Assembly (NCBI RefSeq): GCF_054482525.1
Contig: NZ_JBTHVG010000004.1
Direction: 5' to 3' (one strand)
DNA length: 64,000 nucleotides
DNA from: a plasmid
Shown here piece after piece: positions 11,608 through 30,749 of the stretch (position 1 is the first letter of the stretch; the number at the start of each line of letters is the position of its first letter). The notes under the pieces are model-generated. The model was not told the origin of the DNA. It did not search any database and was given only the letters and a program-made list of their open reading frames with translations. Position numbers and translations under genes: made by a program.

Positions 11608-12882
11608 CTAACCCAGCCTGGCCAGGGGAATATCTCGCCATTTAGTTGTATAACACTGACTCAACATTTCCCGTTTCATTTGCCATTCAGGGGCGGTTCC
11701 TCGCCCCGCAAACCACACTTTCCCTTTTCCCGACTGGTTCAGTTCATCGAGTGTTTTCATTAACTTTTCACTGTTTTTACGGGGCTGGATTTCATCAAAT
11801 AATCCCGGCTGCGCTATACCCGATGGTGTGAAATCAGCCAGCATGACTCCTGCCTTCATATAGCGGTACCCTTCACGCCAGACATGGTTTAAGGCTCTGC
11901 ATGCGGCGGCAATAATGTCCCGGCTGTCCTGTGTGGGCAATGGAAGCTTTTCCACAGCGGCATTGCTGTAACAGGGTTCTTTTACTGCAAAGGGGGATGT
12001 CCGTACAAATGTCGTCACCTGCCGGCAATACTGAAGCTCCCCACGTAGTTTCTCTGCGGCCCGCTCTGCATACTGAACAACAGCCTGGTGCATGGCATCT
12101 TTGTCTGTGATTCGTTCACCAAAACTGCGACTACAGACAATCTGCTGTTTTGCCGGTGGTGCTTCTTCCAGGGATATGCAGGACTCGCCGTTGAGTTCGC
12201 GTACCGTACGCTCAAGAATGACGCTGAAGTTTTTCCGGATGAATGCCGTGTTAGCCTGCGCCAGCTGCAGTGCTGTGTTAATACCCAGTGCATTCAGCTT
12301 TTCCGTCAGTCTGCGTCCTACTCCCCAGACCTCACCAACTGGCTGCAGCCCCAGTAGCTTCAAGATCCGATTACGGTTTTCTGCCGTCAGCGCGACCACA
12401 CCGGAAAACTGTGGCCATTGCTTTGTTGCCCACTGTGCACTTTTAGCCAGCGTTTTTGTAGGCGCAATGCCCACCCCCATGGTGAGTCCTGTCCAGCTCT
12501 TTACCTGTTCCCTGAGCTGATGACCAAAAACCTCCGGAGAGATGCAACGGTTCACCCCCCGCAAATCAATGAACATTTCATCAATTGAGTAGGGCTCAAC
12601 TGCGGGAGAAAGCGACTCCAGAACAGCCATAACCCGTTGGCTCATGCTGTGGTACAGCGCATAATTGCTGGAAAATACATGTATTTTCTTCTCCAGGCGC
12701 ATTTGTCTCACCTGAAACCAGGGCTGCCCCATTCTGATGCCAAGGGCTTTTGCCTCCGGGCTGCGCGCGATCACACAGCCATCGTTATTGCTGAGTACGA
12801 TGACCGGTTCGTTGCGAAGGTCCGGGCGGAAAACTTTTTCACATGAGGCGTAGAAACTGTTGATATCAGCCAGTGCAAACAT
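11608..12882 (-). CDS. impB: Error-prone Y-family polymerase subunit ImpB (UmuC-like)
   Basis: 424 aa; N-terminal MFALADINSFYASCE..VLSNNDGCV typical of UmuC/DinB family. Confidence 0.9.
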   Translation of the reverse strand: MFALADINSFYASCEKVFRPDLRNEPVIVLSNNDGCVIARSPEAKALGIRMGQPWFQVRQMRLEKKIHVFSSNYALYHSMSQRVMAVLESLSPAVEPYSIDEMFIDLRGVNRCISPEVFGHQLREQVKSWTGLTMGVGIAPTKTLAKSAQWATKQWPQFSGVVALTAENRNRILKLLGLQPVGEVWGVGRRLTEKLNALGINTALQLAQANTAFIRKNFSVILERTVRELNGESCISLEEAPPAKQQIVCSRSFGERITDKDAMHQAVVQYAERAAEKLRGELQYCRQVTTFVRTSPFAVKEPCYSNAAVEKLPLPTQDSRDIIAAACRALNHVWREGYRYMKAGVMLADFTPSGIAQPGLFDEIQPRKNSEKLMKTLDELNQSGKGKVWFAGRGTAPEWQMKREMLSQCYTTKWRDIPLARLG

Positions 12883-13319
12883 CAGCGTAACTCCCGCGTC
12901 CTGTGTATCACGTGAGTGACAACACCAAAAATACAGATGTTTTCCGGATACAGTGTGCGGAACTCCGGGCTGTCTGAAACCGGCTCCAGTGCCGGGCGTG
13001 GGCGCAACAGCAGTCGTTTGACGGTGAACTCACCGTCGATCTCAGCGATAACGATGTCCCCGTGTTGTGGTTTTTCGGCCCTGTCCACTACCAGCAGATC
13101 ACCATTCTGCACGCCAGCCTGGTTCATCGATTCACCGCTGGCGCGCAGAAAGAAGGTGGCTGCAGGTCTGCTGATGCAATAGCTGTTCAGATCCAGTTCC
13201 TGCTCAGCATAATCAGTGGCAGGCGAAGGAAAACCGGCCTGGCAACGATCGGCAAACAACGGGCGCACGTAACTGTCATCGCCTGAAGGGTCAGCCGGAC
13301 GGTGATAAACGGTACTCAT
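12882..13319 (-). CDS. impA: ImpA (UmuD-like, LexA/S24 peptidase fold)
   Basis: 145 aa; overlaps impB start; S24-type motifs. Confidence 0.85.
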   Translation of the reverse strand: MSTVYHRPADPSGDDSYVRPLFADRCQAGFPSPATDYAEQELDLNSYCISRPAATFFLRASGESMNQAGVQNGDLLVVDRAEKPQHGDIVIAEIDGEFTVKRLLLRPRPALEPVSDSPEFRTLYPENICIFGVVTHVIHRTRELR

Positions 13320-13564
13320 GCTGCAGGCAGCCAGCTGTCGTCCTGCCAGATTTCTTCCAGCAGAGACAGGATACGTTCTTTATCCTTGTCTCTGCGGGCT
13401 CCTGTGACAGATACAGACGGGGCGCTGCCCTGGTCTATACGCAGCCAGATTTCCGGGTAGTGTGGTTTCAGACGTTGTTCGATTTCATTCTGTAGCGCCT
13501 GAAGTGTGCCTGATTTGAGGTTTTTTGTGCTCTGGCGGTCGAAAAGAATTTCAATGCGGATCAT
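13316..13564 (-). CDS. impC: ImpC, small first gene of impCAB operon
   Basis: start taken at internal Met (MIRIEILF..) so that the LexA box lies upstream; overlaps impA start. Confidence 0.65.
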   Translation of the reverse strand: MIRIEILFDRQSTKNLKSGTLQALQNEIEQRLKPHYPEIWLRIDQGSAPSVSVTGARRDKDKERILSLLEEIWQDDSWLPAA

Positions 13565-13586
13565 GTTCTCATCTCCCTTTTCTATT

Positions 13587-13602
13587 GCTGTATGCATATA
13601 CA
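13587..13602 (-). promoter_or_regulatory. LexA box (SOS operator) for impCAB
   Basis: ctgtatgcatatacag = CTGT-N8-ACAG, about 25 bp upstream of impC start. Confidence 0.6.
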
Positions 13603-13957
13603 GTATTCTAATAACTGAATCCACACACAGTCAAATGTCATTATTGTGACTAAAAAACGCTCAATTCTCTGAGGGTGTGGCGGTATGCCTGCTGTGGACT
13701 GCTGTGTCCAGCTTATCCACAGCATTTTGCGCACGGTTCTGTGAATAAAATACCTGGTTACCCAGGCCGTGCCGGCACGTTAACCGGGCTGCATCCGATG
13801 CAAGTGTGTCGCTGTCGCCGGCCTCCTCACCCGGTCACGTTTCGTCGTTCCTCCTCCACGCGCTGCGGCTTCGGGGCCGCACCTGCATTCGTATGCGGTC
13901 GCCCGGTTACAGGTGCGGCACGGCCTGATGGAGGCCGCATGTGAGAGGAGAATTCCC

Positions 13958-14884
13958 ATGCCAAACTGGTGCTCAAATCGTATGCATTTTTCTGGTGAAC
14001 CGGCACAGATTGCTGAGATTAAACGACTGGCCAGCGGTGCAGTCACACCGCTTTATCGCCGCGCCACAAATGAAGGTATTCAGCTGTTTCTGGCCGGAAG
14101 TGCCGGACTTCTGCAGACCACTGAAGATGTGCGGTTTGAACCATGCCCCGGACTGACGGCTGCCGGGCGTGGCGTTGTATCGCCGGAGAATATCGCGTTC
14201 ACCCGCTGGCTGACATACCTGCAGGACGGTGTACTGCTGGATGAGCAAAACTGCCTGATGCTGCATAAACTCTGGCTGCAGAGCGGTACTGGACAGTGTC
14301 GCTGGGAAGGATTACCGGACGATGTCAGGGATACCATCACCGCACTTTTCACCGCAAAAAGAGGTGACTGGTGTGGCTTCTGGAGTAACGAGGATGTATC
14401 GGTGTGGTGGAACCGTCTGTGTGACAACGTACTGCCGGAAAAAACCATGCCGTTTGACCTGCTGACGGTTCTGCCCACCCGCCTGGATGTTGAAGTGAAT
14501 GGCTTTAACGGTGGTGTTCTGAACGGTGTTCCTTCTGCATATCACTGGTATACGGAACAGTATGGCGTGAAGTGGCCTGTGGGGTATGAGGTGAATATCA
14601 GTAGTCAGGGAGACAACTTCATTCAGGTGGATTTCGACACGCCGTGGTGTCAGCCGGAAAGCGACGTTATTGCAGAATTAAGCCGCCGTTTCAGCTGCAC
14701 GCTGGAGCACTGGTACGCCGAACAGGGCTGTGATTTCTGTGGCTGGCAGTTGTATGAGCGCGGAGAGCTCGTTGATGTGCTGTGGGGGGAACTGGAATGG
14801 TCTTCCCCGACAGATGACGATGAGCTGCCGGAAGTCACCGGACCTGCGTGGATAGTCGACAATGTGGCGCATTATGGCGGATGA
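13958..14884 (+). CDS. Hypothetical leading-region protein
   Basis: start at internal Met (MPNWCSN..) preceded by SD gagaggaga; Trp/Cys-rich. Confidence 0.5.
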   Translation: MPNWCSNRMHFSGEPAQIAEIKRLASGAVTPLYRRATNEGIQLFLAGSAGLLQTTEDVRFEPCPGLTAAGRGVVSPENIAFTRWLTYLQDGVLLDEQNCLMLHKLWLQSGTGQCRWEGLPDDVRDTITALFTAKRGDWCGFWSNEDVSVWWNRLCDNVLPEKTMPFDLLTVLPTRLDVEVNGFNGGVLNGVPSAYHWYTEQYGVKWPVGYEVNISSQGDNFIQVDFDTPWCQPESDVIAELSRRFSCTLEHWYAEQGCDFCGWQLYERGELVDVLWGELEWSSPTDDDELPEVTGPAWIVDNVAHYGG

Positions 14885-15268
14885 AGTATGACGGAGACGG
14901 GCGGGAAACCGCCCGTTTCTTTTCCGACAAAGGATGTCGCCGTGCTCCTCTTTTTACTGCGCCGGCTGACGCGGCGCGGCATAAACGCTGCCTGTGGTCA
15001 GTGTCCCGCGTCCGGCCGGGCACGGGACGGGCGCTTTTACCGCTCCCGGCTGGCATCGGTGACAGTGTACGCCAGCCCGTCGCCCTTTTCTGATGAACGC
15101 CCTTCAAGCCGCTTTCGCGGCATATTCTCGCCGTCAAAAAGACGACGGCTGCGATATTCCACGGTCGGCCTGACCCGTTACCGGACGCGGTGAACAGCCC
15201 ACAGGCAGCGGGGAACGGGCACCACAGGGGTGCCCTCCCGGTGCCCTCTGTAAGAGAAGGAGTTTCGT

Positions 15269-15952
15269 ATGTCCCGTTTTGTCCTCGGTAACTGCATCGA
15301 TGTTATGGCCCGTATTCCTGATAACGCCATTGATTTCATCCTCACCGACCCTCCATATCTCGTCGGTTTCCGTGACCGTTCCGGGCGCACCATCGCCGGC
15401 GATAAAACCGATGAGTGGCTGCAACCGGCCTGTAATGAAATGTTCCGCGTGCTGAAAAAAGACGCGTTAATGGTGAGCTTCTACGGCTGGAACCGCGTCG
15501 ATCGCTTTATGGCCGCCTGGAAAAATGCGGGATTCAGCGTTGTTGGTCACCTGGTCTTCACCAAAAACTACACATCGAAGGCCGCATATGTGGGCTATCG
15601 CCACGAATGCGCCTACATCCTGGCAAAAGGCCGTCCACGTCTGCCACAAAAACCGCTGCCGGACGTGCTGGGCTGGAAATATTCAGGCAATCATCATCAC
15701 CCGACGGAAAAGCCTGTTACCAGCCTGCAACCGCTGATTGAGAGCTTCACACACCCGAACGCAATTGTGCTGGACCCGTTTGCAGGCAGCGGCTCAACCT
15801 GCGTTGCAGCCCTCCAGTCCGGACGCCGGTATATCGGTATCGAGCTGCTTGAGCAGTATCACCGTGCCGGACAGCAACGACTGGCTGCCGTACAACGGGC
15901 CATGCAGCAGGGGGCCGCGAATGATGACTGGTTTATGCCGGAGGCTGCGTAA
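15269..15952 (+). CDS. Orphan DNA N6-adenine/N4-cytosine methyltransferase
   Basis: 227 aa; catalytic DPPY motif (LTDPPYL) near N-terminus, FAGSGST SAM-binding motif near C-terminus; no adjacent restriction gene. Confidence 0.8.
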   Translation: MSRFVLGNCIDVMARIPDNAIDFILTDPPYLVGFRDRSGRTIAGDKTDEWLQPACNEMFRVLKKDALMVSFYGWNRVDRFMAAWKNAGFSVVGHLVFTKNYTSKAAYVGYRHECAYILAKGRPRLPQKPLPDVLGWKYSGNHHHPTEKPVTSLQPLIESFTHPNAIVLDPFAGSGSTCVAALQSGRRYIGIELLEQYHRAGQQRLAAVQRAMQQGAANDDWFMPEAA

Positions 15953-16174
15953 ATGAACTATGCCGGACACGAAAAACTTCGCGCCGAAGTGGCGGAGGTG
16001 GCCAATGCCATGTGCGACCTGCGTACAACCATGAATGAGATGGAGCGGCGGTACAGCTTTAATGCTGACACCCTGCCGGAACGTCTGGTGCGTCAGACGT
16101 TGTTTCGCGCAAACCGCCTCCTGATGGAGGCATATACCGAAATTCTTGAACTGGATGCGTGCTTCAAAGATTAA
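15953..16174 (+). CDS. Hypothetical small protein
   Basis: 73 aa; start abuts methyltransferase stop. Confidence 0.45.
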   Translation: MNYAGHEKLRAEVAEVANAMCDLRTTMNEMERRYSFNADTLPERLVRQTLFRANRLLMEAYTEILELDACFKD

Positions 16175-16186
16175 GGAGGAGACGAA

Positions 16187-16621
16187 ATGTACGGAACATG
16201 CGAAACGCTCTGCCGTGAGCTGGCAGCAAAGTATCCGGGAAACACGCCGCTGATGCTGCTTATCTGGTCCCCGGAAGAGATTCAGGCACTGGCCGACGGT
16301 ATGGAAATTTCTCTGACCGATCATGAAATCAGGACTGTCCTGGCGCACCTGGAGGACATCCCGGAAGACCAGCGGATGGAGTCCGGTATTTCTTCCGCCG
16401 CTGCGATGGAGATTATCAGCAACGTGAGCGAAAACCGCCTGGTGACCGTCTCTGCTGAACTGCTGGCGTCCCTGATTCAGACCGCTGAACAGGCACTGTG
16501 GAAACGTGAATGGGCCGCCCGTGATAACGGCCTTGCCGTCCCGGAATGTGTTACCCGCCGTCAGGCAGTGATTAATCAGGCCCGCACCCTGCTGAAAAAC
16601 AACACACACGAAAACAACTGA
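16187..16621 (+). CDS. Hypothetical protein
   Basis: 144 aa; SD aggaggagacgaaATG. Confidence 0.5.
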
Positions 16622-16671
16622 TGTTATCGCCGCCTGCCCTGCGGGCGGCGATACAGGGAGAACGCTTAATC

Positions 16672-17442
16672 ATGAACAAAACGCTGAATGCACTGGTTTG
16701 TCGTCACGCCCGTAACCTGCTGCTGGCGCAGGGCTGGCCGGAAGAGACGGATGTTGACCAGCGAAATCCGAACTATCCGGGCTGGATCAGCATTTACGTG
16801 CGGCTGGATGCGCCCCGGCTGGCGACGTTACTTATCAACCGTCACGGCGGCGTACTGCCACCGCTCCTGGCCTCCGCCATTCAGAGACTGACCGGAACCG
16901 GGGCGGAACTGGTACTGTCCGGCAGTCAGTGGCAGTCGCTGCCGGTACTTCCGGCAGACGGAACGCAGGTGTCTTTCCCGTATGCCGGAGAATGGCTGAC
17001 CGAAGACGAAATCAGGGCTGTTCTTGATGCGGTGCACGATGCGGTACGAAGCATCTGTTACCAGGTGGCAGAAGATGCGCGGCGTATCCGTGCGGCGCTG
17101 ACCACCACCGGTCAGACGTTGCTGACCCGCCAGACGCGCCGCTTTCGCCTGGTCGTGAAGGAAAGCGATCACCCCTGCTGGCTCGATGAAGATGACGAAA
17201 ACCTGCCCGTGGTGCTCGATGCCATCGTGAACCGGGGAGCACGTTTTTCGTCGGTGGAAATGTACCTGGTCAGCGATTGTATTGAGCATATCCTGTCCAG
17301 TGGGCTGGCCTGCGATGTGCTGCGTATACCCGATGAACCGCCCCGCCGCTGGTTTGACCGTGGTGTTCTGCGGGAGGTGGTCCGGGAAGCCCGGACCGAA
17401 ATCCGCAGCATGGCGGATGCCCTGGCAAAAATCCGGAAATGA
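16672..17442 (+). CDS. Hypothetical protein
   Basis: start at internal Met (MNKTLNAL..) of track ORF 16621..17442. Confidence 0.5.
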
Positions 17443-17507
17443 TGACACTGGCGGGGTAAATCCCCGCCTTTTTCCTGCCGGTCCCCGGACAGAGCACAAA
17501 GGAAGTC

Positions 17508-17842
17508 GCCGCCGGCTCCGCTTTACCCGGCCATGCGGGGCATGGCCTTGTGGTTTTTCAGTTATGTGGCCTCAGCGTCGTGTGCGGGCTGTGCCGTGCC
17601 TCCATCTTAGCCGGGCTGGCGTTGATGCAAGGGTACGCTTCGCCGCTGCGGTCACCCGGTCCCTCCTTCCCGTCTGCCGTGATTTTCCGGTCGTTCACCC
17701 GCTCAGATTTCGCGGTCTCACCCTGCAACTCCCGTCAGCCGTGTGCGTCAGGCTGCGGCTTCCCTTGCGCCCCTGCATCCCCGCCTGTTCGCCCGGCTTT
17801 TATGGAGGCACGGCACCGCCCGGTGTCGCGGAATATGTGAAC
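17508..17842 (+). promoter_or_regulatory. Leading-region repeat family A copy 1 (ssi/Frpo-like single-strand promoter element)
   Basis: about 335 bp GC-rich element nearly identical to 24457-24788; immediately upstream of klcA-like gene. Confidence 0.5.
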
Positions 17843-17858
17843 AACGGAGGAAAACATC

Positions 17859-18284
17859 ATGCAATATGCGAAACCTGTCACTCTGAATGTTGAAGAGTGC
17901 GACCGTCTCTCCTTTCTGCCGTATCTGTTTGGCAACGATTTTCTGTATGCCGAGGCGTATGTGTACGCGCTGGCGCAAAAAATGATGCCGGAATATCAGG
18001 GAGGCTTCTGGCACTTCATCCGCCTGCCGGACGGTGGCGGTTACATGATGCCGGATGGCGACCGTTTCCACATGGTGAACGGTGCAAACTGGTTTGACCG
18101 TACCGTGAGTGCTGATGCCGCAGGCATCATCCTTACCTCCCTTGTGATTAACCGCCAGTTGTGGCTGTACCACGACAGCGGGGATGCAGGACTGACCCAG
18201 CTTTACCGGATGCGCGATGCGCAGTTGTGGCGTCACATCGAATTTCACCCCGAATGCAACGCGATTTACGCGGCTCTGGACTGA
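17859..18284 (+). CDS. klcA: KlcA/ArdB-family anti-restriction protein
   Basis: 141 aa; recalled resemblance to KlcA/ArdB; sits directly behind repeat A. Confidence 0.6.
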
Positions 18285-18330
18285 TTAACGGACGGGGCGG
18301 CAATGCCGCCCCTGTAAAGGAGACGAGAAC

Positions 18331-18753
18331 ATGTACTGTACTGTTAAAGAAATTATCCGCGAAGTGCTGGATACAGACGTGCCGGACAGTGAATGCGTTT
18401 TTGCCGTGGTGCTGACCCGTGGGGATGTGCGTCACATAGCCCAGGACTGGAACCTGTCAGACGATGAGCTGGAAACCGTCATGCAGCGGCTGGACAATGC
18501 CTTTGAGCATGGTGCGGATGTCAGCGTTGTTCACGACGTTGTTCGTGAACTGATGGAAGAAAAGCGCGCCAGCCGTCATGTGACAGTCCCGGCGGTGATG
18601 CTGGAAAAAGTGATGGCGCTGGCAGGCAGTGAAATGAAGCGCCTGTATGCCGTCGGGAGTGAGAACGGGGGCGACGGTGACGCATTCGTCAGGGAGGAAC
18701 GCGAAGCAATGGACGTTGTGTTACAGGCGCTGGACGGGGAGACGATGTCATGA
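18331..18753 (+). CDS. Hypothetical leading-region protein
   Basis: 140 aa; SD aaggagacgagaacATG. Confidence 0.5.
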   Translation: MYCTVKEIIREVLDTDVPDSECVFAVVLTRGDVRHIAQDWNLSDDELETVMQRLDNAFEHGADVSVVHDVVRELMEEKRASRHVTVPAVMLEKVMALAGSEMKRLYAVGSENGGDGDAFVREEREAMDVVLQALDGETMS

Positions 18754-18941
18754 ATATCAGCACAGAAACCCGCGAAATTCTGCGTAATTACAGGGCCGTG
18801 ATTAATGCGCGGCGTCGTGAAATGGGGCAGAAACCGCTCACCACCGCGCAGATTGTTGATGAAATCTGCGATTTTGTGGCGAATCAGCAGGCGGTTTTCC
18901 TGGGCGGTCACTACATCTTACAGGGCAGCAGAAACAGGTGA
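18750..18941 (+). CDS. Hypothetical small protein
   Basis: 63 aa; overlaps upstream stop. Confidence 0.35.
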   Translation: MNISTETREILRNYRAVINARRREMGQKPLTTAQIVDEICDFVANQQAVFLGGHYILQGSRNR

Positions 18942-18974
18942 TACAGGGGCAGGCGGTGGAGGCCGCCTGTCAGC

Positions 18975-19700
18975 CCGCGCGAAAACCCCTGGCAGGCTGA
19001 CGCCTGCCGGAAACGCGGGGTGCAGCGCCTGCGGCGCTGCCGGCCCGGCTTTCCGGTCAGAAGGTAGTGTATGGCTGTATGCCAGGAACAGATGTGATAT
19101 TCCGTGACACTGTCACCGTTTATGGTTGTCTTTTATTGCGCCCACTTCGGCTCCCGGCTGCCTGGCGGCATCCGGTCGTCAGGCCCGACTCCGACAGGCA
19201 GCTGCTGGCGCACCCGCCAGTCTCCGCCGAACCCGCTGGCGCGGTTTCGGGCTGCCGCTACGGTCCGATGCGTGAAAACCCGGGCTTGCAGCGACCGTTA
19301 CGGTCGCGCCGCCCCTGTCGCGCCGTGACCTGCGCTCCCTGCACACCTGACGGTGTGTGAGGAAACTGCGCCTGATGGCGCAGCAGTCCTCCCTCCTGCC
19401 GCCACCCCTGCGGCCTGTTTCCCGCTGTGGACTTTCCGGGGGGCAGACGTAACCCCCTCCCGTTCCATCTGTCCAGGGTGAGATGCACCGGCCACAAAAT
19501 TTTTAGCCATGAACCCGGCAAAAAATTTTGCGTCCGCCCCCGGACAGCTGTCCCGTGAGGCGGTAAACGGGCCCCCATCGGAAAGGTCCACTGCGGGGAG
19601 AAACCCCGAAGAAGTGGACGGCAGGAGGAGCTTTCGCTCCTCTGAAGGGGCACATGAACGTCCCGTCGCCGGTATCCGGTTTATCTCACATCTTTCAGTC
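18975..19700 (+). promoter_or_regulatory. Leading-region repeat family B copy 1 (ssi/Frpo-like) upstream of ssb
   Basis: about 700 bp element with long near-identical stretches at 25355-26030 and partial copy at 28546-28895; ends at SD caggaggtt of ssb. Confidence 0.5.
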
Positions 19701-19711
19701 AGGAGGTTCTT

Positions 19712-20239
19712 ATGAGTGCACGTGGTATCAACAAGGTCATCCTCGTCGGGCGTCTGGGCAATGATCCGGAAGTCCGTTACATCCCCAACGGGGGCGCAGT
19801 GGCAAACCTGCAGGTGGCCACATCAGAAAGCTGGCGTGACAAACAGACGGGGGAGATGCGGGAGCAGACGGAATGGCACCGCGTGGTGCTGTTCGGCAAG
19901 CTCGCGGAAGTGGCAGGTGAATATCTGCGCAAGGGTGCGCAGGTCTACATCGAAGGTCAGCTTCGCACCCGTAGCTGGGAAGATAACGGTATCACCCGTT
20001 ACGTCACTGAAATTCTTGTTAAGACCACGGGCACCGTGCAGATGCTGGGACGTGCACCACAGCAGAACGCTCAGGCGCAACCGAAGCCTCAGCAGAATGG
20101 GCAGTCACAGAGTGCTGACGCGACGAAAAAAGGTGGCGCGAAAACGAAAGGCCGTGGACGTAAGGCCGCGCAGCCAGAGCCTCAGCCGCAACCGCCGGAG
20201 GGGGAGGATTACGGGTTTTCAGACGACATCCCGTTCTGA
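19712..20239 (+). CDS. ssb: Single-stranded DNA-binding protein
   Basis: 175 aa; OB-fold N-terminus, Gln/Pro-rich linker, acidic tail ending DDIPF. Confidence 0.9.
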
Positions 20240-20296
20240 TCGGGCTGACTGTGACAACCGCCCCGCCCTGTGCGGGGCATCACCGGAGATATGAGG

Positions 20297-20530
20297 ATGA
20301 GCGAATATTTCAGAATACTTCAGGGACTGCCGGACGGCTCCTTTACCCGCGAACAGGCGGAAGCCGTTGCCGCACAGTACCGGAACGTCTTTATCGAGGA
20401 TGATCAGGGAACGCATTTTCGCCTGGTTGTCCGTCAGGATGGCACGTTGATCTGGCGCTCCTGGAATTTTGAGGACGGTGCCGGGTACTGGATGAACCAG
20501 TACATCAGGGATTTCGGGATTCTTAAGTAA
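20297..20530 (+). CDS. Hypothetical small protein
   Basis: start at internal Met (MSEYFRIL..) of track ORF 20270..20530. Confidence 0.45.
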
Positions 20531-20582
20531 GAGAGGTGCCGGACGCGCAAACGTCCGGCAGGACATAAGCAATTATAAGGGG

Positions 20583-22547
20583 ATGATTATGCCTGTAACG
20601 AAGTGTGAACCAGAAACCACCCGCAAAGCAAGCCGTAAATATGTAAAAACGCAGGAAACTGCACTGTCTGCCCTGCTGGCGCAGACGGAGGAAGTGAGCG
20701 TGTCGCTGGCCTCACTGATTAAGTCACCGCTGAATGTGCGCACGGTGCCGTATTCTGCGGAGTCCGTCAGCGAACTGGCTGAGTCCATTAGGGGCGTTGG
20801 CCTGCTGCAGAATTTGGTCGTGCATACCCTGCCTGGTGACCGTTACGGTGTCGCCGCAGGTGGTCGCCGACTGGCTGCACTCAACATGCTGGCAGAGCGT
20901 GGCATCCTTACGGCTGACTGGCCTGTACGCGTGAAAATTATTCCGCAGGAGCTGGCGACTGCCGCATCAATGACTGAAAACGGTCATCGTCGGGATATGC
21001 ACCCTGCCGAACAGATTGCCGGATTCCGTGCAATGGCGCAGGAAGGCAAAACGCCTGCACAAATCGGTGATTTGCTGGGCTATTCGCCCCGCCATGTCCA
21101 GCGAATGCTGAAACTGGCTGACCTTGCGCCTGTCATCCTCGATGCGCTGGCAGAAGACCGCATCACCACAGAGCACTGTCAGGCGCTGGCGCTGGAGAAC
21201 GACACCGCGCGTCAGGTGCAGGTGTTTGAAGCCGCCTGCCAGTCGGGATGGGGCGGTAAACCGGAAGTACAGACCATTCGTCGTCTGGTGACCGAAAGTG
21301 AAGTGGCGGTGGCGGGGAACAGTAAATTCCGCTTCGTGGGGGCTGATGCCTTCTCGCCAGACGAACTGCGCACCGATTTGTTCAGCGACGACGAGGGTGG
21401 CTATGTGGACTGCGTGGCGCTCGATGCCGCCCTGCTGGAAAAACTCCAGGCTGTCGCAGAGTTCCTTCGGGAAGCCGAAGGCTGGGAATGGTGCGCCGGA
21501 CGCATGGAGCCTGTCGGTGAGTGCCGTGAGGATGCCGGAACATACCGCTGTCTGCCGGAGCCGGAAGCGGTGCTGACGGAGGCAGAAGAAGAACACCTGA
21601 ACGAACTGATGACGCGTTACGACGCGCTGGAAAACCAGTGTGAGGAATCCGACCTGCTGGAAGCAGAAATGAAGCTGATTGACTGCATGGCGAAGGTCAG
21701 GGCGTGGACGCCGGAGATGCGTGCCGGAAGTGGCGTGGTGGTGTCCTGGCGTTATGGCAACGTATGTGTCCAGCGTGGTGTGCAGTTGCGCAGTGAAGAT
21801 GACGCGACTGACGACGCTGACCGCACGGAACAGGTGCAGGAGAAAGCGTCAGTGGAGGAAATCAGCCTGCCGTTGCTGACGAAAATGTCCTCAGAGCGCA
21901 CGCTGGCAGTCCAGGCGGCACTCATGCAGCAGCCGGACAAATCTCTGGCACTGCTGGCATGGACGCTCTGCCTGAATGTGTTTGGCAGCGGGGCGTACAG
22001 TAAACCAGCACAAATCAGCCTGGAATGTGAACATTACTCGCTGACCAGCGATGCGCCATCGGGGAAGGAAGGTGCCGCATTCATGGCGCTGATGGCAGAA
22101 AAAGCCCGTCTTGCTGCCCTGTTACCGGAGGGATGGTCACGGGACATGACGACATTCCTGTCACTCAGTCAGGAGGTGCTGTTATCCCTGCTCAGCTTCT
22201 GCACTGCGTGCAGCATCCACGGTGTTCAGACCCGTGAGTATGGTCACACGTCACGCAGTCCGCTGGACTCGCTGGAAACCGCTATCGGCTTTCACATGCG
22301 CGACTGGTGGCAGCCGACAAAAGCAAACTTCTTCGGACACCTGAAAAAGCCGCAGATTATCGCAGCCCTGAATGAGGCAGGACTGTCCGGTGCCGCACGG
22401 GACGCGGAGAAGATGAAGAAAGGCGATGCCGCTGAACATGCAGAGTTCCATATGAAAGACAACCGCTGGGTGCCTGGCTGGATGTGTTCACCACGTCCAC
22501 AGACGGATGCCACTGAACGCGCCGATAACCTGGCTGATGCCGCCTGA
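20583..22547 (+). CDS. ParB/Srx N-terminal domain (ParB-like nuclease) protein of the leading region
   Basis: 654 aa; ParB-like N-terminal domain, HTH-like segment. Confidence 0.65.
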   Translation: MIMPVTKCEPETTRKASRKYVKTQETALSALLAQTEEVSVSLASLIKSPLNVRTVPYSAESVSELAESIRGVGLLQNLVVHTLPGDRYGVAAGGRRLAALNMLAERGILTADWPVRVKIIPQELATAASMTENGHRRDMHPAEQIAGFRAMAQEGKTPAQIGDLLGYSPRHVQRMLKLADLAPVILDALAEDRITTEHCQALALENDTARQVQVFEAACQSGWGGKPEVQTIRRLVTESEVAVAGNSKFRFVGADAFSPDELRTDLFSDDEGGYVDCVALDAALLEKLQAVAEFLREAEGWEWCAGRMEPVGECREDAGTYRCLPEPEAVLTEAEEEHLNELMTRYDALENQCEESDLLEAEMKLIDCMAKVRAWTPEMRAGSGVVVSWRYGNVCVQRGVQLRSEDDATDDADRTEQVQEKASVEEISLPLLTKMSSERTLAVQAALMQQPDKSLALLAWTLCLNVFGSGAYSKPAQISLECEHYSLTSDAPSGKEGAAFMALMAEKARLAALLPEGWSRDMTTFLSLSQEVLLSLLSFCTACSIHGVQTREYGHTSRSPLDSLETAIGFHMRDWWQPTKANFFGHLKKPQIIAALNEAGLSGAARDAEKMKKGDAAEHAEFHMKDNRWVPGWMCSPRPQTDATERADNLADAA

Positions 22548-22598
22548 TGAACAACCACACCGCCCCGCCGGAGACGGGGCGGCAGAGGGAGAAATACG

Positions 22599-23036
22599 AT
22601 GATGAATACCGAACTGACACTGAATGCCCTGCAGTCCATGAATGCCCAGGAATATGAAGAAATCCGTGCTGCGGGAAGCGATATGCGCCGTAATCTCACT
22701 CACGAGGTGATGCGTGAAGTGGACGCACCAGCTAACTGGATGATGAACGGAGAGTATGGCAGCGAGTTCGGGGGCTTTTTCCCCGTCCAGGTTCGTTTCA
22801 CGCCAGCCCACGAACGTTTCCACCTGGCATTATGTTCGCCGGGAGACGTCTCTCAGCTCTGGATGCTGGTTCTGGTGAATGGTGGTGGACAGCCTTTCGC
22901 CGTCGTTCAGGTGCAACATATCTTCACGCCTGTCGCGATCAGTCACACGCTGGCGCTTGCCGCGACACTGGATGCGCAGGGATACAGTGTTAACGACATC
23001 ATCCATATCCTGATGGCAGAAGGAGGTCAGGCATGA
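22599..23036 (+). CDS. psiB: Plasmid SOS inhibition protein PsiB
   Basis: 145 aa; near-colinear similarity to F PsiB as recalled (..[13 protein letters not shown].., ..[35 protein letters not shown]..). Confidence 0.9.
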
Positions 23037-23752
23037 GCGCACGTTCACGGGCACTGATCCCCCTCAGCGCAGAACAACAGGCCGCCATGCAGGCGGTGGC
23101 TGTCACAGAACAACGTCGTCGTCAGGGACGCACACTTTCAGCATGGCCTTATGCCACCGCTTTCTTTCGCTGCCTGAATGGCAGTCGCCGGATTTCGCTG
23201 ACCGATCTCCGCTTTTTTGCCCCTGCGCTGACGAAGGAGGAATTTCATGGCAACCGTCTCCTGTGGCTGGCTGCCGTGGATAAACTGATTGAAAGTTTTG
23301 GGGAAGTCTGTGTTCTTCCCCTGCCATCCGATGCGGGGCACCGTCTGTTCCCGTCCGTGCCTTTTCGTGAAGGTGAGCGTCGTCGTCAGAAAACCACGCT
23401 GACAGAGCAGAAATACAGCCGCCAGCGGGAACGTGAGGCAGAACGACGGGAACTGGAATACCAGACATGTTTTGCTCAGGCGCAGATTGACCTTGCGTTT
23501 CATACTCCCGCCACGGTCGGAAGCTGGTTGTCCCGCTGGTCTGGTGTTGTTGAGGAGCATGATCTGGAAACGATTTTCTGGGGGTGGTGCGGGCGTTTTC
23601 CGTCACTGTCATCATTTGACCGGTTTTTCTGGCAGGAGGAACCACTCTGGCGGCTGATTTTTGAAGCCGGTGAGGCCGGTCGTGGTGCACCGATACAGGT
23701 ACGTGCACTTGAGCAGTGGATGATCCCGAACAAGCTGGAGAACGTAATATGA
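23033..23752 (+). CDS. psiA: PsiA
   Basis: 239 aa; overlaps psiB stop. Confidence 0.75.
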
Positions 23753-24345
23753 TGAAATCAGACGAAAAATACCAGGTTCCCGCGTGGATGCGACCTCTGT
23801 TGCCGTTGCTCTGCAACACCGGGGGGAACGATCCGGAAGAACTGCTGAATGATACAGAAACCACTGCCAGTGCGAATGTTGTCCGTTATGTACTGATAGT
23901 TGCTGTGCGGTCGCAGGTTGATCTGCTGCAGCTTCTGTACAGGAAAGGGCTGTTGCGCACAGAGATACCAGGTGGCTTTTCACCGGAAGAAGCGCAGGCA
24001 CTCCTGGATAATCTGGTGCGCAGCCATATCAGCAAGGCGCTGTCGGGCGAGCGAATGGCAGCCCGTGACAGAAATGCCGATCTGGCCTGGATTAGACAGC
24101 AACTGGTCGATGCCGCCTGGTTTGTCCGTGCCACACTGGAAGCGCATGGGATGAGCGTCGGAAATGAGAGTCCCCCTGCTCCGCCGGAGACAATGCCGGA
24201 CATACAGACACGGGAACTGGTGATGTTGATCAAGCGACTGGCATCATCGCTGAAAGCGGTGAAACCGGACAGTTGTGTGGTGCGTGAAGCGCAGGACTGG
24301 CTGCGCGACAGAAAACTTGTGGATATCACAGATATTCTCCGGTGA
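23749..24345 (+). CDS. Hypothetical protein
   Basis: start at internal Met overlapping psiA stop. Confidence 0.45.
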   Translation: MMKSDEKYQVPAWMRPLLPLLCNTGGNDPEELLNDTETTASANVVRYVLIVAVRSQVDLLQLLYRKGLLRTEIPGGFSPEEAQALLDNLVRSHISKALSGERMAARDRNADLAWIRQQLVDAAWFVRATLEAHGMSVGNESPPAPPETMPDIQTRELVMLIKRLASSLKAVKPDSCVVREAQDWLRDRKLVDITDILR

Positions 24346-24456
24346 ACCAGGCATGTATATTTTACGCAGGGACATGCCGGTCATGATCGTTTCGTTCCAG
24401 GGGTGGTCTGGAGATCATGCGGTGTGCTCCCTGCTCTCGCCGGAATAAGGACGTCG

Positions 24457-24788
24457 CCGCCGGCTCCGCTTTTACCCGGCCATGCGGGGCATGGCCTTGT
24501 GGGTTTTCAGTTATGTGGCCTCAGCGTCGTGTGCGGGCTGTGCCGTGCCTCCATCGTAGCCGGGCTTCTGCGGGCGGGTTGCAAGGTAAGGTGAACCGCT
24601 GCGGTCACCCGGTCCCTCCTTCCCGTCCGCCGTGATTTTCCGGTCGTTCACCCGCTCAGATTTCGCGGTCTCACCCTCCAACTCCCGCCAGCCGTGTGCG
24701 TCAGGCTGCGGCTTCCCTTGCGCCCTTGCAACCCTGCAGGCCCGGCAAAGATGGAGGCACGGCACCGCCCGGTGTCGCAGAACATGTG
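24457..24788 (+). promoter_or_regulatory. Leading-region repeat family A copy 2 (ssi/Frpo-like) upstream of ardA
   Basis: near-identical to 17508-17842. Confidence 0.5.
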
Positions 24789-24806
24789 ACTATGGAGGAT
24801 TCGGGA

Positions 24807-25307
24807 ATGTCTGTTGTTGCACCTGCTGTATACGTTGGAACCTGGCACAAATACAACTGTGGAAGCATCGCCGGACGCTGGTTTGACCTGACCACGTTTG
24901 ATGATGAGCGCGACTTTTTCGCCGCCTGCCGTGCTCTTCACCAGGATGAAGCCGATCCTGAACTGATGTTTCAGGATTATGAGGGATTCCCGGGGAATAT
25001 GGCCTCTGAATGCCATATCAACTGGGCCTGGGTTGAAGGCTTCCGCCAGGCACGGGATGAAGGCTGCGAAGAGGCTTATCGTCTCTGGGTGGAGGATACC
25101 GGTGAGACGGATTTTGACACCTTCCGCGATGCCTGGTGGGGCGAGGCTGACAGTGAGGAGGCTTTTGCGGTTGAGTTCGCCAGTGATACCGGCCTGCTGG
25201 CTGACGTGCCGGAGACGGTGGCGCTCTATTTTGACTATGAGGCGTATGCGCGGGATTTATTCCTGGACTCCTTCACCTTTATTGACGGTCATGTGTTCCG
25301 TCGGTGA
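24807..25307 (+). CDS. ardA: Anti-restriction protein ArdA (DNA mimic)
   Basis: 166 aa from internal Met (MSVVAPAVYVGTWHKYN..); very acidic; matches ArdA as recalled. Confidence 0.9.
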   Translation: MSVVAPAVYVGTWHKYNCGSIAGRWFDLTTFDDERDFFAACRALHQDEADPELMFQDYEGFPGNMASECHINWAWVEGFRQARDEGCEEAYRLWVEDTGETDFDTFRDAWWGEADSEEAFAVEFASDTGLLADVPETVALYFDYEAYARDLFLDSFTFIDGHVFRR

Positions 25308-25354
25308 TTTACTCCCCCGCTCCGGCGGGGGTATGGCCTGCCAGGCCGCCGGAA

Positions 25355-26030
25355 AACCCTGGCAGGCTTACGCCTGCCTGAAATGCAGGAGGGCCGCGCC
25401 TGCGGCGCTGCCCTTCCTGCCCGTCATGGTGTGAGGCATTTTTCTGTTATGTCGTTTCTGTTGTTCTGATTTCCGGAGGCGGGGACACCTTCGGCTCCCG
25501 GCTGCCTGGCGGCATCCGGTCGTCAGGCCCGACTCCGACAGGCAGCTGCTGGCGCACCCGCCAGTCTCCGCCGAACCCGCTGGCGCGGTTTCGGGCTGCC
25601 GCTACGGTCCGATGTCTGAAAAACCAGGCTTGCAGCGACCGTTCCGGTCGCGCCGCCCCTGTCGCGCCGGAAACGGCGCTCCCTGCACACCTGACGGTGT
25701 GTAAGGCCACTGCGCCTGATGGCGCAGTCAACCCTTCCGCCGCCACCCCTGCGGCCTGTTTCCCGCTGTGGACTTTCCGGGGGCTGGAGTAACCACATCC
25801 CGTTTCAGCAGTCCAGGGGAAGATATACCGTCCACAAAATTTTTAGCCATAAACCCGGCAAAAAATTTTGCGTCCGCCCCCGGACAGCTGCCCCGTGACG
25901 TGGTGACGGACGCCCCATCGGAAAGGTCCACTGCGGGGAGAAACCCCGAAGAAGTGGACGGCAGAAGGGGCTTTCGCCCCTCCGGGGAGCAACCGGTCGG
26001 CCCGGCGACCTGATTCAGCAGAAGGAGACG
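25355..26030 (+). promoter_or_regulatory. Leading-region repeat family B copy 2
   Basis: long identity with 18975-19700; ends just upstream of ORF 26036. Confidence 0.5.
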
Positions 26031-26035
26031 TTTTC

Positions 26036-26470
26036 ATGACTGTCAGCAGCACGATTTCCGTTTTTTGCCGCGACGGGGTGTTCCGTACCGTTTACTGCCA
26101 CCTGCACGGTGAGCCGACCTGGAACGGTCGCATCCTGCATACCCACTATGCCACCGGTCAGCAGGCCGAAGCCCTGGTTGAACACGGTGATATCCGTTGC
26201 CTCGGTCCCCGTTGCGACAAACCCGCCGGGCATACGCTTCAGAACCCGGTGGACGGTGTGACGGCTTATTACGGACGTGACAGTGGTTTCCGGATGGACA
26301 GTGAGGCGCGTGAGTACCGTTCTTTCAGGGAGGCTATTGCCACTGAAAGCACTGAAGAGGTGCGCTTCCATTATGTGTTCATCGACGGCTACTGGAAGGT
26401 GATGTACCGCACGCCGGAAGGCTGGAAGATGAAAGCGCTCGCGCTGGCACTGCGTCGCTGTCCGAAATGA
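26036..26470 (+). CDS. Hypothetical protein immediately downstream of repeat B copy 2
   Basis: 144 aa; SD ggagacgttttcATG. Confidence 0.5.
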   Translation: MTVSSTISVFCRDGVFRTVYCHLHGEPTWNGRILHTHYATGQQAEALVEHGDIRCLGPRCDKPAGHTLQNPVDGVTAYYGRDSGFRMDSEAREYRSFREAIATESTEEVRFHYVFIDGYWKVMYRTPEGWKMKALALALRRCPK

Positions 26471-26562
26471 AAAAAGGCAGGGCGATAAACCCTGCCTCTC
26501 TCCGCCGGCGCTTCCCCGCCAGGAAGTCCGGCATCTCAATCACTATCTATGGAGATTATGCC

Positions 26563-26829
26563 ATGAGACCATCAATTATCTTCGCAACCGCCGAGTATGT
26601 AAAGCGTCTGCGTGAAGAGTGCCTGCGGGAGAATAAACCCCTGCACCGCCATACCCGCTTCAGACGTCAGGAGCTGGCACAGGATGAGATTAACCCGGAC
26701 GTCCTGGCGATGAGCGGCCATATCGCCAGACGCTGCAGTGAGCAGAAGCGGGTGCGTATCCCCGCTATGAAAGTCAGCGAATGGGGCCACCTGCTCCGCG
26801 CGCTTGAAATTGAGCGGGTCTGCCACTGA
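26563..26829 (+). CDS. Hypothetical small protein
   Basis: start at internal Met (MRPSIIF..) preceded by ggag. Confidence 0.4.
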   Translation: MRPSIIFATAEYVKRLREECLRENKPLHRHTRFRRQELAQDEINPDVLAMSGHIARRCSEQKRVRIPAMKVSEWGHLLRALEIERVCH

Positions 26830-26893
26830 TTAACCCTTGCCGTCTGCCTGTGCAGGCGGCAGGATACGTTCAGACATCTCACCAGGAGGAACC

Positions 26894-27784
26894 GTGAGTA
26901 AGAAGAAAACCACCACGACGCCCACGCCGCATGATGCCGCGTTCCGGTCGTTCCTGGCGAATCCCGACGTCGCCAGAGATTTTCTGGAACTGCATCTTCC
27001 GGCGGAGTACCGGCAGTTGTGCGACCTGTCCACGCTGAAGCTGGAACCCGCCACCTTTGTTGAGCCGGACCTGCATCAGTACGCCAGCGATATCCTCTGG
27101 AGTGTGAAAACCACCGGGGGTGAAGACGGCTATGTTTATACGCTCATCGAGCACCAGAGCACCGAAAATCTGTACATGCCTTTCCGCATGTTACGTTACA
27201 GTGTGGCGGCGATGCAGAGACATCTGGAGCAGCACAAAACGTTGCCACTGGTGATTCCTGTGCTGTTCTATCATGGTGAGCGCAGCCCGTACCCGTACAG
27301 CATGAACTGGCTGGACTGTTTTGAGAATCCGGCACTTGCGGCTAAAATATACACAAAGCCGTTTCCGCTGGTTGATATCACTGTCGTTGATGACAATGAA
27401 ATCATGAACCATCGCCGGATGGCCGCACTGACGCTGCTGATGAAGCATATCCGCCATCGTGACATGATGGATCTGCTGGACAAACTCCCGCAGGTCATGG
27501 TGGAAATTTCAGACGAGCAGGTGCGTGTTCTGATTCATTACATCGTTAACGCAGGGGACTCTGTATCACCGGAATTTATGCGGGCGCTGGCTGAGCGTCT
27601 GCCGCAGCATGAGGATAAACTGATGACTATCGCAGAACGTCTTGAGCAAAAAGGTCGCCAGGAAGGAGCGCTTGAAAAAGCCCTGGCTATTGCGTGCCAG
27701 CTTCAGAAAATGGGGATGACGCCGGAGCAGATTAAGCAGGCTACCGGACTTTCCGAAGCTGAACTGAAAAAAATCATTCACTGA
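26894..27784 (+). CDS. Rpn-family (YhgA-like, PD-(D/E)XK Transposase_31) recombination-promoting nuclease
   Basis: GTG start after SD aggagg; N-terminal ..HDAAFRSFL.. and ..YTLIEHQS.. motifs typical of Rpn/YhgA proteins. Confidence 0.7.
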   Translation: MSKKKTTTTPTPHDAAFRSFLANPDVARDFLELHLPAEYRQLCDLSTLKLEPATFVEPDLHQYASDILWSVKTTGGEDGYVYTLIEHQSTENLYMPFRMLRYSVAAMQRHLEQHKTLPLVIPVLFYHGERSPYPYSMNWLDCFENPALAAKIYTKPFPLVDITVVDDNEIMNHRRMAALTLLMKHIRHRDMMDLLDKLPQVMVEISDEQVRVLIHYIVNAGDSVSPEFMRALAERLPQHEDKLMTIAERLEQKGRQEGALEKALAIACQLQKMGMTPEQIKQATGLSEAELKKIIH

Positions 27785-27796
27785 TGAGAGCATCAC

Positions 27797-27822
27797 AGCC
27801 CGGCAAAATGCCGGGCTTTTTT
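27797..27822 (+). terminator. Rho-independent terminator-like hairpin after rpn
   Basis: agcccggca-aaa-tgccgggct followed by tttttt. Confidence 0.5.
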
Positions 27823-27846
27823 GTCAGCAGGAGCAGAGAAAACAGT

Positions 27847-28041
27847 ATGACGCTTGCAGAACGTCTTATACAGAAAGGTTTCGACGAAGGTTTTAAAGAA
27901 GGTTTTAAGAAAGGTGCGCTTGAAGTGGCGCGGGAAGCAGCCTGCCGGCTGCGGGATATGGGCTGGACGCCGGAACGGATTCAGGAGGCGACCGGACTTT
28001 CCGGTGAAGAACTGAAAAAGCTGTTTCCTGATGAGCAGTAG
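27847..28041 (+). CDS. Small protein resembling the C-terminal domain of the upstream Rpn nuclease
   Basis: MTLAERLIQKG...WTPERIQEATGLSGEELKKL aligns with Rpn C-terminus MTIAERLEQKG...MTPEQIKQATGLSEAELKKI. Confidence 0.45.
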   Translation: MTLAERLIQKGFDEGFKEGFKKGALEVAREAACRLRDMGWTPERIQEATGLSGEELKKLFPDEQ

Positions 28042-28071
28042 CCTGACATTCTGCCAGGCTGTGAATCACGC

Positions 28072-28323
28072 TCACACATTCCCTGCCGTTTCCCCCAGTT
28101 CATTTTCCAGACGCCTGATGATATCTGCCTTGCGCATCCCCTGCATGTGAGGCAGCAGGTCACGGACTGAAAGTGCCTGGGTGGTCCTCCAGACGGTGAC
28201 GTCCACCTGTTCCGCATTTTCCCAGGCGTGCCATGTTCTCTGCGTCACGCCAAATTCTCTGGCCGCTTTTTCGCGTGACCATAGCATGCTTTTTCGCCAG
28301 ATTCGCAGTTCCCAGCCGGTCAT
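28072..28323 (-). CDS. HTH (Cro/XRE-like) DNA-binding protein
   Basis: 83 aa; ..REKAAREFGVTQRTWHAWE.. HTH; palindromic operators upstream. Confidence 0.55.
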   Translation of the reverse strand: MTGWELRIWRKSMLWSREKAAREFGVTQRTWHAWENAEQVDVTVWRTTQALSVRDLLPHMQGMRKADIIRRLENELGETAGNV

Positions 28324-28337
28324 AAAACACCTTTGAA

Positions 28338-28425
28338 AAAGTGAAAAAACTTCACTTTATTTTATCATCACAATTGCCAAATCAGCGCGATAAATAAGTG
28401 TAAAAAAGTGAAGAAATTTCACTTT
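28338..28425. promoter_or_regulatory. Two copies of palindrome AAAGTGAA-N-TTCACTTT upstream of HTH gene (operator candidates)
   Basis: aaagtgaaaaaacttcacttt at about 28338-28358 and aaagtgaagaaatttcacttt at about 28405-28425. Confidence 0.5.
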
Positions 28426-28545
28426 TTTTGTTTGTAAGTGTCGTGCGGTTTTCTCTGTTTTCACCTGTGCGGGAGTGGTGTGCCAGTGACCACCACATGC
28501 CATTGTTGTGCCGTCGTTTTTCTTCAGTCGCGCCGGATGCGGCGC

Positions 28546-28895
28546 TCCCTGCACACCTTACGGTGTGTAAGGCCACTGCGCCTGATGGCGCAGCTGTCTC
28601 TTGCCTGTCTGCCGCCGCACTGCGGCCTGTTCTCCGCAGACGGACTTTCCGGGGGTACATACACGACCACATCCCGTTTCAGTCGTCCAGGGGAGAGATG
28701 TACCAGCCACAAAACTTTTTGCCGCTGGCGTCAAAAACTTTTGCGTCTGCCCCCGGACAACTGCCCCGTGACGTGGTGAGCGTCCCCCGTCGGAAAGGTC
28801 CACTGCGGGGAAATACCCTAAGACCCGGACGGCAGAAGGAGCTTCGCTCCTCCGGGAAATGACCTGGCTGACCCGGCAGTCGTGACGATGAGGAG
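28546..28895 (+). promoter_or_regulatory. Leading-region repeat family B, partial copy 3
   Basis: matches the 3' two-thirds of copies at 18975-19700 and 25355-26030. Confidence 0.45.
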
Positions 28896-28900
28896 ACAAT

Positions 28901-29752: not shown

Positions 29753-29761
29753 TTAAACAGA

Positions 29762-29795
29762 AAAGCCCTGGTATTTATGCCGGGGCTTTTTTTTC
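29762..29795 (+). terminator. Rho-independent terminator-like hairpin
   Basis: aaagccctgg-loop-ccggggc followed by T-run. Confidence 0.5.
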
Positions 29796-29837
29796 TGTAA
29801 TCATCATAATCTCAGAACACGATGTGACATTGTCACA

Positions 29838-30179: not shown

Positions 30180-30184
30180 TTTCT

Positions 30185-30370
30185 CTCCGTTTCATGTTGA
30201 AGTCTGATTTTATCATCAAAAACTGACTCCTGGCAGGGCTGCGCCCTGCTTCTGCCGTCTGCATAAGACTATGATGCACAAAAATAACAGGCTATAATGG
30301 CCTGAAAAACGGGACAGGATGTGCAATTGTAATACCGTCACACGCGACGCTATTACAATTGCCATCTGGT
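30185..30370. other. oriT: oriT region (origin of transfer) upstream of nikA
   Basis: perfect 12 bp inverted repeat gcaattgtaata / tattacaattgc at about 30323-30363 and GC-rich IR gcagggc..gccctgc; immediately upstream of nikA. Confidence 0.6.
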
Positions 30371-30739: not shown

Positions 30740-30749
30740 GGATTCTCCG

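Follow-up and report, generated by a model that had tools for sequence, protein, structure and literature searches.

An orphan beta-class DNA methyltransferase gene in the leading region of an IncI-type plasmid is very probably an M.EcoGIX orthologue that protects incoming plasmid DNA

The 64,000-nucleotide stretch of plasmid DNA analyzed here (contig NZ_JBTHVG010000004.1 of NCBI RefSeq assembly GCF_054482525.1; the whole stretch is called the window) carries at positions 15269-15952 a beta-class N6-adenine/N4-cytosine DNA methyltransferase gene without a restriction partner, which is very probably a functional orthologue of M.EcoGIX that protects the incoming plasmid during conjugation. The gene, its family, fold, selection, position, and upstream structure come from the present analysis, while activity and protection come from experiments on the pESBL orthologue. 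The gene, specificity, regulation, and role of the M.EcoGIX family have already been published, and the window carries a further copy of it. Our own contribution is comparative evidence for the single-strand structure upstream of the gene, which is conserved, with compensatory changes, in Pectobacterium, Serratia, and Klebsiella plasmids and favors the transferred strand.

Gene and protein

The first-pass annotation had placed a DPPY-motif methyltransferase at 15269-15952, and the open reading frame proves to be exact. Its landmarks are as follows.

15269-15952, plus strand: orphan beta-class DNA methyltransferase gene, 227 amino acids, ATG start, TAA stop
15257-15262, plus strand: Shine-Dalgarno sequence AAGGAG, 6 nt ahead of the methyltransferase ATG
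15347-15358, plus strand: catalytic motif IV, DPPY (residues 27-30), read off the sequence and invariant in the family alignments
15779-15799, plus strand: S-adenosylmethionine-binding motif I, FAGSGST (residues 171-177), invariant in the family alignments

The protein matches Pfam N6_N4_Mtase (PF01555) over profile positions 1-219 of 221 (E = 1.5e-39, 136.7 bits, cut-off 26.7) as well as the NCBIfam model PRK13699, "DNA methyltransferase," over positions 1-226 of 226 (498 bits, cut-off 244). Motif IV comes before motif I, which is the permutation of the beta class, and HPTEKP occupies residues 144-149. Scores against the NCBIfam equivalog models of CcrM (84.1 bits, cut-off 830) and YhdJ (PRK11524, 79.2 bits, cut-off 292) are far under their cut-offs. 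GenBank record MH430881.1 names an identical copy of the gene "yhdJ, DNA adenine methyltransferase YhdJ," a label that we consider an over-annotation given the YhdJ equivalog score of 79 bits against a cut-off of 292.

An AlphaFold model computed with 32 family members as input (pLDDT 77.8, pTM 0.79) matches the solved beta-class enzymes CcrM, M.BceJIV, M1.HpyAVI, M.RsrI, and M.MboIIA (E = 1e-15 to 1e-11, TM 0.67-0.75), with CcrM being the nearest solved structure in both the sequence and the structure comparison (6pbd, E = 3.7e-15). Furthermore, third codon positions hold 48 of 63, 39 of 59, and 63 of 88 nucleotide differences in comparisons with the pESBL and F orthologues, an excess indicating that the protein is under purifying selection. 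The gene is real and probably functional.

We also observe a C-terminal tail, AAN..W..PEAA (residues 216-227; 15914-15949, plus strand), that does not vary among 32 family members with identities down to 73% and for which disorder is predicted (pLDDT < 50); M.BceJIII and relatives at 40-55% identity do not have it. The tail could be a clade-specific short docking motif. A role as a general docking peptide for DNA polymerase I was considered and rejected, since the polymerase I-associated M.BceJIII and the relatives at 40-55% identity do without it.

Position in the leading region

The window comes from a conjugative plasmid of the IncI type and aligns collinearly, at 98-99% identity, with NZ_CP093549.1, a record typed as IncI-gamma/K1, MOBP, and MPF_I that covers the whole window except 33443-34456. 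The two differ by two IS3 copies absent from the window and by a 1-kb segment specific to the window. The genes of the neighborhood, confirmed by Pfam scans of the window's own open reading frames, are listed here together with the nick-region motif.

12882-13319, minus strand: UmuD-like protein (ImpA in pESBL)
13316-13624, minus strand: DinI-like protein (ImpC in pESBL)
13913-14884, plus strand: DUF1281 protein
15953-16174, plus strand: YubE-like protein of 73 amino acids
16187-16621, plus strand: DUF1380 protein
16621-17442, plus strand: protein of 273 amino acids
17859-18284, plus strand: KlcA/ArdB-type antirestriction protein
19712-20239, plus strand: SSB
20583-22547, plus strand: ParB-like protein
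22599-23036, plus strand: PsiB
23033-23752, plus strand: PsiA
24696-25307, plus strand: ArdA
28901-29752, plus strand: DUF4942 protein
30320-30315, minus strand: oriT nick-region motif ATCCTG, with the nick after the G (ATCCTG/T); sole match in 29801-30800; context TTGCACATCCTG/TCCCGT, the slash marking the nick
30359-30739, plus strand: NikA
30750-33452, plus strand: NikB

The ATCCTG motif sits between a mobC-like gene and nikA, just upstream of nikA/nikB, and we take it to be the nick region by analogy with RP4/R64-type MOBP origins. Since the motif lies on the minus strand, it is the minus strand that is transferred, and the lower coordinates form the leading region; this direction is in line with the literature on ColIb-P9 and pESBL (PMC12672017, PMC7736820). 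The methyltransferase gene lies 14.4-15.0 kb behind the nick on the plus strand, co-oriented with ssb, psiB, and ardA, and the transferred minus strand is the template for the plus-strand leading-region genes, the methyltransferase gene included. The placement in the leading region made in the first-pass annotation is thereby borne out. Orphan methyltransferases rank among the most enriched leading-region gene families in a survey that cites the M.EcoGIX case (PMC11541004).

With respect to a restriction partner, Pfam and PADLOC scans of the neighbors and of the unannotated open reading frames tested returned no endonuclease, and no restriction endonuclease is annotated in NZ_CP093549.1 (which covers the window except 33443-34456). 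A Type II restriction-modification system would have its cognate endonuclease adjacent; the neighbors here are DUF1281, YubE-like, DUF1380, and KlcA genes. The earlier statements that the gene has no restriction partner nearby and that it sits among anti-restriction genes (KlcA/ArdB-type at 17859-18284, ArdA at 24696-25307) both stand.

The methyltransferase TAA abuts the ATG of the 73-amino-acid gene (15950-15955), followed by a 12-nt gap and then an overlap, and the three packed genes at 15953-17442 are probably co-transcribed with the methyltransferase gene. The order of the methyltransferase gene and these three downstream genes is the same in pESBL, F, and the Pectobacterium, Serratia, and Klebsiella plasmids.

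Two further regions of the window are worth recording. The closest annotated plasmid lacks the 1-kb segment located at 33443-34456 between nikB and trbC; within this segment, an open reading frame at 33557-34393 (plus strand) encodes a DUF2971 protein of 278 amino acids that matches the PADLOC candidate defense family PDC-S31 (E = 1e-11). On the transferred strand, the first gene to follow oriT is the DUF4942 gene at 28901-29752 (plus strand), which is preceded by a class 1 element; a leading-region survey (Nature 2024) mentions a structure-identified "putative DNA methyltransferase" family.

Identity with M.EcoGIX

Aligned without gaps, the window protein and the product of NC_018659.1 54782-55465 share 214 of 227 residues (94% identity); the latter is M.EcoGIX of pESBL-EA11 from Escherichia coli O104:H4 (PMC4288162). 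Orthologues have been named YfbB in R64 and YfeA in F, and the gene order from impC to nikB is the same in the window and in pESBL.

Deletion of M.EcoGIX leaves pESBL stability and transfer into a permissive host unaffected, cuts transfer up to about 1,000-fold into recipients bearing EcoGIII or EcoRI, and lowers it about 9-fold into a Klebsiella isolate, and the defect is gone when the donor pre-methylates the plasmid (PMC4288162). When artificially expressed, M.EcoGIX and M.BceJIII deposit m6A at SAY (S = C/G, Y = C/T), at about 40% of sites and almost solely on one strand, the activity of the family being promiscuous and partial; in vitro, single-stranded substrates are modified and duplex is not, and a DPPY-to-APPA change kills the activity of M.EcoGIX (PMC7736820). 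Inversion of oriT abolishes the protection (PMC7736820). Both enzymes co-purify with DNA polymerase I (PMC7736820); the published link between M.EcoGIX and the polymerase rests on co-purification and artificial fusions.

SMRT sequencing of native strains with M.EcoGIX or M.BceJIII found plasmid and host DNA unmodified, the donor likewise (PMC7736820). Since the enzyme stays silent once the plasmid is established, the methylome of plasmid-carrying cells is known to lack modification, and an unmodified methylome there would not refute the function. Within 15 min, transconjugants show strong induction of the M.EcoGIX gene as one of six leading-region operons, and the hairpin upstream of it, with a start site mapped by 5' RACE, has been named a "class 3" single-strand promoter that is also conserved in F (PMC12672017).

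The proposal that the methyltransferase protects incoming plasmid DNA by methylation is supported by our results and has been demonstrated experimentally for the 94%-identical, syntenic M.EcoGIX (PMC4288162, PMC7736820, PMC12672017). The accompanying remark on an unknown target specificity no longer holds for the family, as SAY m6A on single-stranded DNA has been published (PMC7736820). We infer that the 94%-identical window copy behaves as M.EcoGIX; a changed specificity at this distance is unlikely, since M.BceJIII has the same activity at 62% identity.

A structured element on the transferred strand

The 384 nt between the DUF1281 gene and the methyltransferase ATG, folded as single-stranded DNA of the minus strand, reach -109.9 kcal/mol, compared with -79.2 ± 4.5 kcal/mol for shuffled sequences (z = -6.8). 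The parts of the structure are as follows.

14945-15262, minus strand: branched structure of about 320 nt on the transferred strand, counterpart of the published class 3 element of M.EcoGIX and putative single-strand promoter, from fold and covariation
15209-15174 paired with 15026-14987, minus strand: basal stem
15173-15104, minus strand: arm A
15102-15029, minus strand: arm B
15235-15217, minus strand: small hairpin
15262-15257 paired with 14950-14945, minus strand: closing helix, a pairing with no covariation support

The window and pESBL copies of the element share 97% identity. The comparison was extended to distant loci from Pectobacterium, Erwinia, Serratia, and Klebsiella, whose proteins are 78-82% identical to the window protein. 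These loci show the order methyltransferase, YubE-like, DUF1380, antirestriction gene, with the exception of Erwinia, where DUF1380 stands ahead of YubE-like; a diverged copy of the element is present in three of the four (Pectobacterium, Serratia, and Klebsiella).

The consensus fold of six sequences comprises 93 pairs in a three-way junction, with 96.6% of cells paired. Changes on both sides occur in 21 of the 93 pairs, against 10.6 ± 2.0 in column shuffles (none of 500 reaching 21) and no more than 4 after sliding the partners by 1-3 columns. In each of the six sequences, the fold of the transferred strand is more stable than that of its complement, with consensus energies of -68.7 and -58.4 kcal/mol, respectively (DNA parameters), and the paired positions of the consensus contain 26 G-T cells versus a single A-C cell. 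This strand asymmetry fits selection on single-stranded DNA and not on an mRNA leader. In addition, the element exceeds the gene in nucleotide conservation, with 4,858 of the 5,000 best records at 95-99% identity for the element and 2,861 of the 5,000 best at 90-95% for the coding sequence.

A consensus scanner found no sigma-70-type duplex promoter on either strand of 14700-16300, and neither a strict both-strand scan of 14860-15275 nor a conserved-box search across the six aligned sequences gave convincing -35/-10 boxes. The best conserved box candidate, TA(C/A)ACT, lies in the apical loop of arm B, where its geometry is awkward and no usable -35 accompanies it. No Rfam family was matched in 12000-32000.

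An annotated open reading frame of 101 amino acids at 14888-15193 (plus strand), a "hypothetical protein" in public records, lies wholly within the structured element and would encode an Arg-rich product of low complexity. We rejected it as a candidate gene, as a 1-nt indel breaks the frame in pESBL and the pESBL open reading frame is a different chimera; it is probably not a gene, and the conserved structure accounts for the stretch.

Several further features of these upstream regions were observed. The sequence GAGGAG on the transferred strand (14945-14950; CTCCTC in the mRNA sense) is invariant in seven of seven loci, Erwinia included, and is complementary to the Shine-Dalgarno region at 15257-15262 about 310 nt away, the intervening structure bringing the two together. 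From this complementarity, CTCCTC in a transcript reading through from upstream could mask the ribosome-binding site. The Erwinia amylovora plasmid homologue, whose protein is 81% identical, is preceded by a different sequence, unalignable with the class 3 element save for an invariant GAGGAGCA...GCGACAT block, and this sequence may be a replaced or a further class of control element. Elsewhere in the leading region, a pair of repeats at 17499-17851 and 24447-24799 (about 89-94% alike) lies upstream of klcA and ardA, and a triple at 19145-19642, 25489-25982, and 28527-28856 lies upstream of ssb, an open reading frame at 26036, and the DUF4942 gene. These correspond to the published class 2 (pair) and class 1, ssi/Frpo (triple) single-strand promoters.

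Proposed mechanism and alternatives

During conjugation, the minus strand, starting from the nick near 30315, would enter the recipient with its 5' end leading, and the template of the methyltransferase gene with its upstream element would follow about 15 kb after the nick. On the single strand, the element is expected to form a branched, duplex-like fold, and host RNA polymerase could use this fold as a promoter, such that the methyltransferase would be made solely while the plasmid is still single-stranded. The enzyme would then methylate adenines of the single strand with a loose SAY preference, leaving the resulting duplex partly protected, and synthesis of the complementary strand would remove the structure and switch expression off.

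A different main role, namely interference with single-stranded or polymerase I-dependent replicators (ColE1/p15A-type plasmids, filamentous phage) or modulation of early plasmid replication via polymerase I, appears unlikely to us. It draws on the observations that M.EcoGIX and M.BceJIII, when active, reduce the copy number of ColE1/p15A plasmids, suppress M13 production, and co-purify with polymerase I (PMC7736820), and also on protection at CTGCAG and GAATTC that, in our own reading, SAY leaves unexplained. These effects, however, came with constitutive artificial expression, whereas the native gene is silent after establishment (PMC7736820) and is expressed in the short single-stranded phase (PMC12672017). 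The deletion, moreover, gives a direct, restriction-dependent transfer defect that donor pre-methylation cures (PMC4288162), and the gene shares its block with klcA and ardA.

A conventional duplex methyltransferase, be it a Type II remnant or a Dam/CcrM/YhdJ-like regulator that methylates the established plasmid or chromosome, is largely refuted and has very little left to recommend it. The CcrM and YhdJ equivalog scores far under cut-off, the lack of an endonuclease gene among those found in the window and of a duplex promoter upstream, and the very short presumed recognition segment (about 40 residues) all argue against it, as do the SMRT data, in which plasmid and host are unmodified in orthologue-carrying strains (PMC7736820); this is set against a best PADLOC model labeled "Type II methyltransferase," the one GenBank record that says yhdJ, and CcrM as the nearest solved structure. 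That the open reading frame is decaying or inactive and carried passively is scarcely credible: nothing specific favors it apart from the many truncated or fused copies in databases, and the gene is full length with intact motifs and a strong third-position bias, is retained in thousands of plasmid records and in most complete E. coli genomes (counts below), and has kept a conserved upstream element. Protection of the incoming plasmid by an M.EcoGIX-type enzyme is the reading that we favor.

Target specificity

Between the motif VIII region and HPTEKP lies a segment of about 40 residues with conserved prolines, presumably the recognition region; its consensus in the family alignments is GRPxLPxxPLPDVxxWKY(S/T)GN. 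The shortness of this segment fits weak sequence discrimination.

In the EcoRI site GAATTC, the protective adenine is the second A. By our own reading, the protective adenine of the EcoGIII site CTGCAG stands in CAG and that of GAATTC in AAT, neither of which is SAY, so that the published specificity incompletely explains the published protection. The two papers describing the protection and the specificity do not comment on this mismatch (PMC4288162, PMC7736820). We tentatively raise the rather improbable idea that on conjugating DNA the effective target range is broader than, or different from, SAY, because both sites fall outside SAY and because the differences of the window allele from M.EcoGIX lie mainly in the short loop expected to contact the target. 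If true, alleles would differ in the restriction systems that they neutralize, or protection would come partly from something other than site methylation.

Prevalence and significance

At least 5,000 PLSDB records contain a copy at 90% identity or above, and a homologue is found in 3,375 of 5,426 complete E. coli genomes, with 4,624 of 4,679 places being on plasmids. The wider subfamily forms 235 clusters at 50% identity (E ≤ 1e-30). The gene is part of the establishment functions of IncI/IncF conjugative resistance plasmids, is present in most sequenced E. coli, and, as already published, helps to account for the limited power of restriction systems to stop plasmids from spreading.

On 63-72 contigs we observe proteins of 280 amino acids that combine a methyltransferase domain (PF01555) with a PsiB domain (PF06290), the methyltransferase-like part being residues 1-182. 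These fusions probably arise from a recurrent deletion that joins the two leading-region genes.

Comparison with known systems

M.EcoGIX of pESBL has the same length as the window protein, and the amino acid identity is 94% to it and to the F copy alike. The two loci also agree in the genes on either side and in how they are placed and oriented with respect to nikA/nikB and oriT. M.EcoGIX differs by 13 substitutions, six of which (122, 124, 125, 127, 128, and 142) are in the presumed recognition loop at residues 122-142, which reads GRPRLPQK...NH in the window and GSPARPRN...NR in pESBL. The host plasmids differ in type, pESBL being IncI1 and the window being closest to a record typed IncI-gamma/K1.

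M.BceJIII, from plasmid pBCJ2315 of Burkholderia cenocepacia J2315, is 62% identical to the window protein over 199 residues, shares the short loop ahead of HPTEKP, and has the same published activity as M.EcoGIX, single-strand m6A at SAY (PMC7736820). Its gene, like that of the window, lies near a ParB-like gene and a relaxase on a conjugative plasmid, yet the plasmid is of a different type (MOBF/MPF_F, Betaproteobacteria) and the protein is without the AAN..W..PEAA tail.

DpnA, the second methylase of the pneumococcal DpnII system, acts on single-stranded DNA, is induced on entry of a foreign single strand, and protects it before it becomes duplex. The window gene follows the same working principle and both enzymes are beta-class; M1.HpyAVI (5hek/5hfj), labeled DpnA in the PDB sequence file, matches the window protein (E = 1e-11, TM about 0.7). 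DpnA, however, is GATC-specific and works within a complete restriction-modification cassette in natural transformation, and the window gene is not of the DpnA family.

CcrM of Caulobacter, M.RsrI, and M.BceJIV share the fold, the motifs, and the motif order with the window protein, but they are only 21-25% identical to it, have a longer recognition region, and act at defined duplex sites, and CcrM has an extra C-terminal domain that the window protein lacks. The Frpo/ssi class 1 promoters of F and ColIb-P9, finally, follow the same logic as the upstream element, in that a structure that only the transferred strand forms switches on transient expression in the recipient. The class 1 and class 2 repeats show no sequence similarity to the element upstream of the methyltransferase gene (window repeats; PMC12672017), and the consensus of this element is a three-way junction, unlike the single long hairpin of Frpo/ssi.
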